Below are positions 36,001-39,000 of a stretch of DNA of 64,000 nucleotides, piece after piece. The stretch is taken from IMG/VR virus record IMGVR_UViG_2718218322_000002; one strand, written 5' to 3'. The first letter of the stretch is position 1. Every line of letters begins with the position of its first letter. Source of the stretch: a virus (taxonomy: Duplodnaviria; Heunggongvirae; Uroviricota; Caudoviricetes). The position numbers were made by a program.

Positions 36001-39000
36001 ACTCCCGTGGGCAGATCAAAGAACTGCGTATTCTGGACTGGAGCCGGGTTGAACCTCTGGTGGCGGATGACGGCGAGGTGTTCTATCGCATCACGCCGGA
36101 CCGGAACTGCGGGATCACGGAGGCGGTGACGGTGCCTGCCCGGGAAGTGATCCACGACCGGTTTAACTGTTTTTTTCATCCGCTTGTGGGGCTGCCGCCG
36201 GTGTATGCTGCCGGGCTGGCTGCCACGCAGGGGTATCATATTCAGGCAAATTCAACGTCTTTTTTCAGAAATGGCGGCAGGCCGTCCGGGGTGATTGAGA
36301 TCCCCGGCAGTATAACGGAAGAAAATGCGAAAAAACTGAAGAGCAACTGGGACAGCGGGTATACCGGCGAAAATGCGGGGAAAACGGCGATTCTGAGCAA
36401 CGGGGCGAAATATAACCCCACGACGTTTTCACCGGTGGATGCGCAGACGGTGGAACAACTGAAAATGACCGCTGAAATTGTCTGTTCGGTGTTCCGTGTC
36501 CCGGCCTACAAGATTGGTGTGGGACAACCTCCCTCCAGTGATAACGTGGAGGCGCTGGAGCAGCAGTATTATTCCCAGTGTCTGCAGACGCTGATTGAGT
36601 CCATTGAGCTGTTACTGGATGAGGCGCTGGAAACGGGGGAAAACGAGAGCACGGAGTTTGACGTCACCACGCTGCTGAGAATGGACAGCGAACGGCGCAT
36701 GAAAACGCTGGGTGAGTCGGTGAAAAATACGCTGCTGACGCCCAATGAGGCCCGTAAACGTGAGAACCTGCCGCCCCTGGCCGGCGGTGATGCACTGTAT
36801 CTTCAGCAGCAGAACTACAGTCTGGAGGCGCTGTCCCGTCGTGATGCCCGTGAGGATCCGTTCGCGTCGTCCGGGAAAACAGTCTCAGCACAACTGCCTG
36901 ATGGCGCATCTGACGGTAATAAGGCAATCAGTGAAACAGAGCATGATGCGGTGAAAGCGATGTTCAGGGGGATACTGCGAAAATGACGGAACGGGAACTG
37001 TCCATTATTCGTGCACTGGGCGAAGAATTCGCCATGGTGCTGGCGGATTTACAGCGTACATTTGAGGAGAAAATAGCCGCGCAGGCACAAACGTTTGAAG
37101 AAAAACTGGCTTCTCAGTCTGTGGTATTACAGAAGTGCGTGACGGGTGATGATGTGCGTCCGATGCTTGAGCAGATGGTGAAAGAGGCAGTGAGCCATAT
37201 TCCTGTTCCGCGCGACGGTCGTGACTACGATCCGGATGTTCTGCAGAAGGCGGTGAATGATGCGGTTGCGAATATTCCGGTACCGGCAGACGGCAAAAGT
37301 ATCACCCCGGATGATGTGCGTCCGATGCTTGAGCAGATGGTGAAAGAGGCAGTGAGCCATATTCCTGTTCCGCGCGACGGTCGTGACTACGATCCGGATG
37401 TTCTGCAGAAGGCGGTGAATGATGCGGTCGCGAAAATACCGGTACCGGCAGACGGTAAAAGTATCACTCCGGATGATGTGCATCCGATGCTTGAACAGAT
37501 GGTGAAGGAGGCGGTAAGCCATATTCCTGTTCCGCGTGATGGTCGTGACTACGATCCGGATGTTCTGCAGAAGGCGGTGAATGATGCGGTCGCGAAAATA
37601 CCGGTACCGGCAGACGGTAAAAGTATCACTCCGGATGATGTGCATCCGATGCTTGAACAGATGGTGAAGGAGGCGGTAAGCCATATTCCTGTTCCGCGTG
37701 ATGGTCGTGACTACGATCCGGATGTTCTGCAGAAGGCGGTTCTGGAGGCGGTGAGTGCCCTGCCGGCTCCGCAGGACGGGCGTGATGCCACGGCACTGGA
37801 AATACTCCCCGCCATTGACGATCAAAAATCCTTTCCCCGGGGCTCGTATGCCACACACCAGGGTGGACTCTGGCGGGCGTATGAAAAAACGTACGGGATG
37901 CGGGGATGGGAATGCCTGGTTGACGGGGTGGCGGATATTGACGTCAGCATGACGGGTGAACGGTCGTTCTCTGTGGTGGTCCGGCAGAGCAGTGGCCAGC
38001 GTACGGAAAAAACATTTTCCCTGCCGGTGATGCTCTACCGTGGTGTGTTCAGAATCGGCGAAACTTACCACCCCGGCGATACGGTGACGTGGGGGGGCTC
38101 GTTGTGGCACTGCAACAGTATGACCGGTGATAAGCCCGGAGAAGCTCATTCATCAGGCTGGACCCTGGCTGCAAAACGTGGGCGGGATGCAGGAGGTGGA
38201 AAGTGACAGCATTACTGACACTGGAAGAAATCAAGGCACATCTGCGTGTCGACCATGACGCGGATGATGAGATGCTGATGGACAAGGTTCGTCAGGCTAC
38301 CGCCGTGCTGCTGGCCTACATCCAGGGCAGCCGGGATAAAGTGATTAGTGAGGACGGTGAGCTGATCCCTGGTGAGGCATTAACCCGGATGAAGGGGGCT
38401 GCCATGCGACTGACCGGGATGCTGTACCGGAATCCGGATCTTGCTGAGCGGGAAGACCTCGTGCAGGGGGAACTGCCGTTTTCTGTTTCCGTGCTGATTT
38501 ACGATTTGCGTTGTCCGACGGTGTTATGAGGAGGGGGAATGGCAATATCTGCAGGTCGTCTGACACAGATGATCAGTGTTCTGAACCCGGTGTTAACCCG
38601 TAATGCTGCCGGAGAAATGACGGAAGAATGGGTGTCATGCGGGAAAATTCATGCGGATATCCGGGGCAGGAGCAGCCGGGAGCGGATGCAGTCCGGTGCG
38701 GAAATGGCGCAGGCGGAAATCCGCATCTGGGTACGCGGTCAGTCTGGTCGTGAAATCACGGCGGCGTCACGACTTCATGTGCTGAGTGGTCCCTGGCGTG
38801 ACCATGTCCTGAATGTCGTCGGGGTCCCGGTTCCGGATGCAACCGGCGGGCGTCTGGAAATTCTCTGTCGGCTGGGAGGGGAAAAATGATCGAAACCCTG
38901 CTGGATTTTTCGGGGCTGGAGGACATCAGCCGCGATTTGCAGCTTCTGAGTGGTGCGGAAAATAACCGGGTGCTGCGTGAGGCAACCCGTGCGGGTGCGA

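Follow-up and report, generated by a model that had tools for sequence, protein, structure and literature searches.

We analyzed a 64,000-nucleotide stretch of viral DNA (IMG/VR record IMGVR_UViG_2718218322_000002, Caudoviricetes; hereafter the window), which by its sequence is a lambdoid Shiga toxin (Stx)-type prophage of E. coli O157:H7. Between its portal gene and its gp6-like head-tail adaptor gene lies an open reading frame (ORF), designated ORF X, that harbors an array of 162-bp tandem repeats and changes in length among related loci by whole repeat units. ORF X is currently annotated as part of a portal gene; the comparisons presented below indicate that it is a separate gene and a member of a very large family. 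With confidence only slightly better than even, we propose that ORF X encodes a modular, fiber-like accessory protein of the virion that is anchored near the portal vertex and carries a variable shaft and a glycan-binding tip. The parts of the gene are as follows.

36983..38206, plus strand: ORF X, the repeat-bearing gene (407 amino acids; ORF call and starts of homologues).
36983..37147, plus strand: N-terminal region (amino acids 1–55), one long helix in the AlphaFold2 model; proposed attachment or oligomerization segment.
37148..37740, plus strand: tandem array of 3.7 copies of the 162-bp unit, encoding alternating 29- and 25-amino acid modules (Tandem Repeats Finder, unit comparison, and AlphaFold2).
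37712..37792, plus strand: eighth, diverged module, YDPDVLQKAVLEAVSALPAPQDGRDAT, which overlaps the partial fourth DNA copy and links the array to the C-terminal domain (unit comparison).
37796..38182, plus strand: conserved C-terminal beta domain (amino acids ~272–400), the last ~50 amino acids of which (38036..38176) resemble a carbohydrate-binding module (CBM) of the CBM5/12 type (AlphaFold2).

An in-frame repeat array that varies in copy number

Tandem Repeats Finder resolved the array with a period of 162, 3.7 copies, 97% matches, 0 indels, and a score of 1053. The units begin at 37148, 37310, 37472, and 37634 and share 93–97% identity at the DNA level; copies 1 and 2 differ at 5 positions, copies 2 and 3 differ at 7, and copy 4 is identical to copy 3 across all 107 nucleotides that are present before the array ends. 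A preliminary description of the window, made from the sequence alone, had reported 162-bp repeats with these starts and identical third and fourth copies. Both observations hold, as does its translation of the array into a 54-amino acid repeat, which is in frame within ORF X. Its placement of the gene between those for the portal and the head-tail connector is likewise supported by the matches to PF04860 upstream and PF05135 downstream.

Each 54-amino acid unit consists of two diverged half-repeats of 29 and 25 residues, and each half-repeat contains a helix followed by the sequence I/L-P-x-P-x-D-G. When the diverged last module is included, ORF X contains eight of these helix-plus-PxPxDG-loop modules, in which lengths of 25 and 29 residues alternate. 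The 25/29-residue module has apparently not been described previously. The minus strand carries a 340-amino acid ORF (37127..38149) that mirrors the array; it is free of stop codons because of the repeat and shows no sign of coding.

We determined the length of ORF X in 81 related loci drawn from IMG/VR, GenBank phages, and RefSeq. The predicted proteins contained 245, 299, 353, 407, 461, or 569 amino acids and always differed in steps of 54; this range corresponds to 0.7 to 6.7 DNA units, or two to fourteen modules. Exactly one 162-bp unit separates closely related phages of the Stx1a and Stx2c groups, as in the pair LC744184 and LC744183 and in the pair Stx2c_PV98-693 and Stx2c_2409. In complete genomes, most of the best matches to the gene spanned 1224 bp; several spanned 1061–1062 bp and a single one 900 bp. 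The copy-number variation between isolates that the preliminary description had predicted is therefore seen directly. A homologue with 55% identity to ORF X (P0002) contains its own near-perfect triplication of 54 amino acids, which indicates that amplification has recurred within the family.

The preliminary description had also considered that the repeats might be an artefact that would collapse upon re-assembly. This possibility is ruled out by the finding that the identical 1224 bp are present in seven complete genomes of E. coli O157:H7 (100% identity; 99.9% to phage Stx2a_WGPS8), together with the quantized lengths, and only those, found in other assemblies. The array, which often occurs in several prophage copies per genome, does break short-read assemblies at ORF X. 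One cluster of ORF X proteins (P0243; 879 members) includes hundreds of "partial" proteins from contigs of 0.3–1 kb.

The gene is widely distributed. Of 5426 complete E. coli genomes, 1247 (23%) carry it, often in several copies each, and it also occurs in 92 deposited phage records, most of which are Stx1a-, Stx2c-, or Stx2a-converting phages. Among proteins clustered at 50% identity, the ORF X family numbers 5459 cluster representatives at E ≤ 1e-3, of which 618 reach E ≤ 1e-30.

Predicted architecture and proposed function

An AlphaFold2 monomer model of ORF X, built with 121 sequences, suggests a three-part organization. Residues 3–53 form a single helix. The shaft that follows is modeled as eight helices of 13–17 residues separated by 12-residue loops rich in Pro, Gly, and Asp, with predicted local distance difference test (pLDDT) scores of 45–70. 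The beta domain (residues ~280–400) is modeled with pLDDT values greater than 90, and the C-terminal 155 residues yield a mean pLDDT of 87.5 when folded alone. The C-terminal end adopts, in the model, the small three-stranded beta fold of a chitin-binding domain, and matches to the predicted fold of ORF X include tail fibers and tailspikes. The Pfam profile of this domain, PF02839 (CBM_5_12), aligns with residues 359–379 of ORF X at 18.5 bits, which is below the gathering cut-off of 26.2; many homologues with 60–70% identity have a precomputed PF02839 match on record.

Further resemblance to fibers comes from relatives of ORF X. At least five G-X-Y triplets follow the C-terminal domain in 51 of 150 family representatives (34%), one family member (P0291) carries the collagen-like domain PF01391, and the tail-fiber motif SAY..GF.G..EW..SL is found in 5 of the 150. 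ORF X of the window ends in ..KRGRDAGGGK and has no GXY run. Collagen-like segments form triple helices, and it is solely from these tails in relatives that we infer a trimeric state for the family.

These features can be combined into a model. ORF X would be translated immediately after the portal through an overlapping stop and start (ATGA) and would thus be made in step with it. The long N-terminal helix probably oligomerizes and anchors ORF X near the portal vertex, giving rise to a trimeric fiber whose shaft is formed by the helix-plus-loop modules, with each 162-bp unit contributing two of them. The CBM5/12-like end of the beta domain probably makes weak, reversible contacts with a surface glycan. 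Because each unit spans 54 codons and is nearly identical to its neighbors, unequal recombination between units, or slippage during replication, would gain or lose modules in pairs without disturbing the frame. Fiber length would consequently differ among otherwise similar prophages.

Several considerations weigh against this proposal. The model of the shaft is of low confidence and is compatible with both end-to-end stacking and folding back of the modules, although such scores are to be expected when an oligomeric fiber is modeled as a monomer. Our literature searches found no paper on the ORF X protein or its repeat, and no virion proteomics or imaging that places ORF X on the particle. The C terminus of the portal is expected, from solved portal structures, to face the interior of the capsid; the portal-ORF X fusion that is common in E. 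coli, and that occurs both in deposited phages and in a metagenomic homologue, is therefore awkward for a strictly external fiber. Finally, the capsid gene of this prophage is frameshifted, so ORF X may go unused here.

Two other locations in the virion were weighed against the neck. ORF X may decorate the capsid surface, forming a head fiber at many sites of the shell. There is precedent for head fibers and for decoration proteins that carry adhesion domains (phi29 gp8.5 and T4 Hoc); ORF X closes the head module, and a fiber-like architecture with a CBM-like tip would suit this role. On the other hand, the tight coupling of ORF X to the gene for the low-copy portal rather than to the capsid gene, together with its recurrent fusion to the portal, suggests that it is present in few copies and associated with the portal vertex. 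Head and neck fibers are inseparable on sequence data alone, and we consider the head fiber unlikely.

The most serious rival, because fusion to the portal C terminus has been tolerated twice independently, is a protein that resides inside the capsid on the portal crown, in the manner of SPP1 gp7, Mu F-type minor head proteins, or ejection proteins. In that location fusion to the portal would be harmless. The independent fusions in E. coli (the G6 allele described below) and in the metagenomic homologue favor such a protein, as do the presence of fused forms in deposited phage genomes, the translational coupling of ORF X to the portal, and its invariable position adjoining it. However, the CBM5/12-like fold, the collagen-like tails, the tail-fiber motifs, and the fold matches to tail fibers and tailspikes point to an exposed, trimeric, glycan-binding fiber. 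Moreover, ORF X has no match in Pfam to PF04233 (Mu F) or to any internal-protein family, and twelve additional chains of 407 amino acids would presumably cost capsid volume. An internal portal-crown protein is thus, in our estimation, quite unlikely.

ORF X and the portal gene

The features of the portal-ORF X region are as follows.

35622..36986, plus strand: portal gene (454 amino acids) with a complete HK97-type domain.
36967..36971, plus strand: poly-G tract (G5), located six codons ahead of the portal stop and 11 nucleotides upstream of the ORF X ATG (window compared with Sakai Sp6).
38091..38097, plus strand: second poly-G tract (G7; codons W-G-G) within the CBM-like module (alignment of relatives).
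38203..38529, plus strand: gp6-like head-tail adaptor gene, directly downstream of ORF X (PF05135, E 1e-7; phrog_40 "head-tail adaptor Ad1", E 3e-30).

Existing annotations treat ORF X as a piece of the portal. RefSeq (Prokaryotic Genome Annotation Pipeline) gives both ORFs of an identical copy the single label "phage portal protein, frameshifted", DDBJ AP012540 has "portal protein (pseudogene)", and the exact ORF X protein is listed in GenBank as "phage portal protein". The PHROGs family phrog_2271 ("portal protein") is an 859-position profile that spans both ORFs, and a PHROGs search with ORF X returned nothing beyond "portal protein" and unknown families that derive from these E. coli sequences. 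Homologues bear the mutually inconsistent names "portal protein", "gp6-like head-tail connector", and "carbohydrate binding domain protein". The first two are not supported by domain content: ORF X has no match to PF04860 or TIGR01537, and none to PF05135 (Phage_connect_1), which is found in the downstream gene; homologues named as gp6-like connectors have no PF05135 domain on record. Searches with ORF X yielded no relevant NCBIfam match, one match in the PDB (E 0.87), and in Pfam only sub-threshold or spurious matches to helices (TetR_C_35, DUF4244, and FliG_N) with no passing stretch.

These labels imply that ORF X is the C-terminal half of an ~861-amino acid portal that was inactivated by a 1-bp deletion in the G tract, and that the repeat is decaying within a pseudogene. 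In addition to the annotations, this explanation can point to the frameshifted capsid gene of the same prophage and to relatives, about one third of the total, in which the two ORFs are fused. However, the upstream ORF by itself contains the full portal domain, matching PF04860 from positions 2–321 of 321 (E 1.4e-80) and TIGR01537 (portal_HK97) from positions 2–343 of 343 (E 3e-106). A phmmer search with the portal of the window detected a portal domain in only 2 of the top 150 representatives of the ORF X family; it was absent in the other 148. The closer homologues examined (P0002 and P0003, with 53–55% identity, as well as P0013 and P0021) start at the homologous methionine, M-N/T-E-R-E-L/I-S. 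The order of portal, ORF X (its start overlapping the portal stop), gp6-like adaptor, and head closure is also conserved in a Pseudomonas genome and a metagenome contig.

The state of the junction among relatives leads to the same conclusion. The window and Sakai Sp6 differ in this tract by a single G. In the G5 state of the window, the portal ends six codons downstream at a TGA that overlaps the ORF X ATG, and the two proteins are separate; with G6, as in Sakai Sp6 (ECs_1544), the portal reads through into ORF X to generate one ORF of ~861 amino acids. G5 was found in 51 of the 81 loci and G6 in 30, and across all of IMG/VR the numbers were 76 and 41 stretches, respectively. When loci were grouped by local haplotypes of the 570-bp flanks, 31 haplotypes contained only G5, 13 only G6, and 2 both states. 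ORF X is intact in 50 of the 51 G5 loci and in 26 of the 30 G6 loci. Most deposited phage records, including BP-4795, 1717, and JLK-2012, are split. Because the upstream portal domain is complete, the family lacks that domain, the start methionine and gene order are shared, and the haplotypes, intact ORFs, and phage records favor the split form, we conclude from these comparisons that ORF X is a gene in its own right and that the split form is its normal, ancestral arrangement. A broken portal is very unlikely.

Phages 2851, YYZ-2008, and WGPS6 and three vB_EcoS phages (including vB_EcoS-783R2) have the fused state in their deposited genomes, and the fused form is probably tolerated. Phages 2851 and BP-4795 are reported to be inducible and lysogenizing. 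A portal-ORF X fusion has also arisen independently in an unrelated lineage, represented by a metagenomic protein of 1237 amino acids (P0100; three cluster members). The shaft of this protein contains about 25 modules of a different flavor (..MV..AV..I.LP.PEPLPDI..), which indicates that the module type has diversified within the family. Sakai Sp15, which is reported to be experimentally inducible, was considered as a means of relating the fused or split state to an inducible prophage; its head module is of another type, that of lambda, and Sp15 is hence uninformative. The portals of several Sakai prophages were scored as defective by Asadulghani et al. 2009 (PMC2669165); the text gives no detail on the portal-ORF X junction.

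The second poly-G tract behaves differently from the first. Of the 80 relatives for which this second tract could be placed, 79 have G7; the sole G6 occurs in Sakai Sp6, where it truncates ECs_1544. The constancy of this tract and the variability of the junction indicate that slippage is selected against where it destroys ORF X and is tolerated at the portal-ORF X junction. Together, the intactness of ORF X and the retention of a slippage-prone G7 tract argue for purifying selection on the gene.

In the proposed model, the G5 tract would be a second mutable site, at which one extra G fuses ORF X to the portal C terminus. The sequence AGGGGGA at this site (36967..36985), 11 nucleotides before the ORF X ATG, resembles a Shine-Dalgarno site for ORF X. 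The same bases of the G tract would then set both the frame relation between ORF X and the portal and the binding of ribosomes to ORF X. It is tempting to speculate that the tract is a heritable, recurrently flipping switch between free ORF X and ORF X tethered to the twelve portal subunits, and that together with the 162-bp length polymorphism it constitutes a two-site contingency system for the virion surface or the portal structure. If so, the portal vertex would be built to two different designs, which would distinguish related prophages or subpopulations within a single phage. We regard this idea as doubtful, with a slim chance of being correct.

Least probable of all is a programmed –1 ribosomal frameshift on the G5 allele, with Gly-tRNA slipping on G GGG before the rare codon AUA to yield a minority portal-ORF X fusion beside free portal and free ORF X: the –1 frame is indeed that of ORF X, slippage by –1 at the G run reproduces the exact G6 junction peptide (..FRGD..), and AUA is the next zero-frame codon, but a canonical X XXY YYZ heptamer is absent, the sole predicted hairpin is marginal (z –2.2) and lies ~35 nucleotides downstream rather than the expected 5–9, and two distant relatives (L084 and L086) have ORF X in the +1 frame at junctions that lack a G run, so that no recoding signal or frame relation is conserved. 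We therefore rejected programmed frameshifting as the main explanation.

Gene neighborhood, significance, and comparison with known systems

The genes surrounding ORF X are arranged in the order TerS, TerL, protease-capsid fusion, small ORF, portal, ORF X, gp6-like adaptor, and head closure, followed by gp10-like, tail completion, major tail, chaperone, and tape-measure genes. The stop codon of ORF X overlaps the GTG start of the adaptor gene. The small ORF (35455..35676, plus strand; 73 amino acids) overlaps the start of the portal gene; RefSeq lists it as a "hypothetical protein", and it gave no match in NCBIfam. The relatives from Pseudomonas and the metagenome (L084 and L086) likewise have a small ORF at this position, ahead of the portal gene. 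The gene for the fusion of prohead protease and major capsid protein is split near 34475 into ORFs 33474..34697 and 34616..35410 by a 1-bp deletion (GGG to GG). It is intact in AP012540 and Sakai Sp6, and RefSeq marks the copy identical to that of the window as "frameshifted". As a result of this frameshift, the prophage is probably unable to build heads on its own.

The tape-measure gene (41185..44265) encodes 1026 amino acids, compared with 1080 in the otherwise identical copy of strain 4276. The difference results from an in-frame 162-bp (54-amino acid) deletion near 42676 that lies between two short direct repeats, CTGCAGGAAAAA and ATGCAGGAAAAAGCGCAG. If the usual tape-measure rule applies, a loss of 54 amino acids would shorten the tail by about 8 nm.

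The ORF X gene is carried by 23% of complete E. coli genomes and by thousands of phage lineages under unsupported names, and calls of a "frameshifted portal" wrongly score intact prophage genes as defects. The array could serve as a marker for prophage typing in long-read data. If ORF X is indeed a glycan-binding neck or head fiber, then long-tailed Stx-converting and related prophages carry an unrecognized adhesion device. Its in-frame variable-number tandem repeat (VNTR) would tune the length of the fiber and could thereby affect adsorption, host range, and the retention of toxin-converting phages in the gut.

Among known systems, the nearest functional analogue of ORF X is the neck passage structure (NPS) of lactococcal phages (TP901-1 and the 936 group), a non-essential, coiled-coil fiber that is proposed to be located at the portal and ends in a CBM (PMC6669499). 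Like the NPS, ORF X would be an accessory fiber made with the head genes, attached at the portal or neck, and composed of a helical trimeric shaft with a CBM tip; for ORF X these properties are predicted. The length and presence of the NPS also vary among related phages (PMC6669499). The N terminus of the NPS is a BppU-like beta-sandwich (PMC6669499), whereas that of ORF X is predicted to be a single long helix. No sequence relationship between the two was detected. The NPS carries a CBM of the BppA-like or another fold and ORF X a CBM5/12-like tip; the NPS shaft is a continuous coiled coil, in contrast to the 25/29-residue helix-plus-PxPxDG modules of ORF X; and the hosts are lactococcal and Gram-negative, respectively.

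T4 fibritin (wac, the neck whiskers) is a segmented helical fiber with its N terminus at the neck and a small C-terminal folding domain, an organization that resembles the one predicted for ORF X. However, fibritin has no Pfam or sequence match to ORF X, its tip is a foldon rather than a CBM, its loops are short, and it lacks near-identical tandem DNA units. ORF X also differs from the CBM5/12 domains of Serratia ChiB, Streptomyces ChiC, and some phage tail fibers in that its match to PF02839 is sub-threshold and the CBM-like end is preceded by a beta region of ~70 residues without a clear match. The resemblance of ORF X to HK97-type portals is one of position: it adjoins the portal gene, is translationally coupled to it, and is fused to it in frame in G6 alleles and in P0100, but ORF X itself has no portal domain, and that of the upstream ORF is complete. 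Accessory CBM-tipped phage fibers are already known as a kind, and ORF X with its in-frame VNTR is not a new kind of system. What is new here is the correction of its annotation, the fused/split polymorphism at the G tract, and a structural hypothesis for a very large unnamed family.

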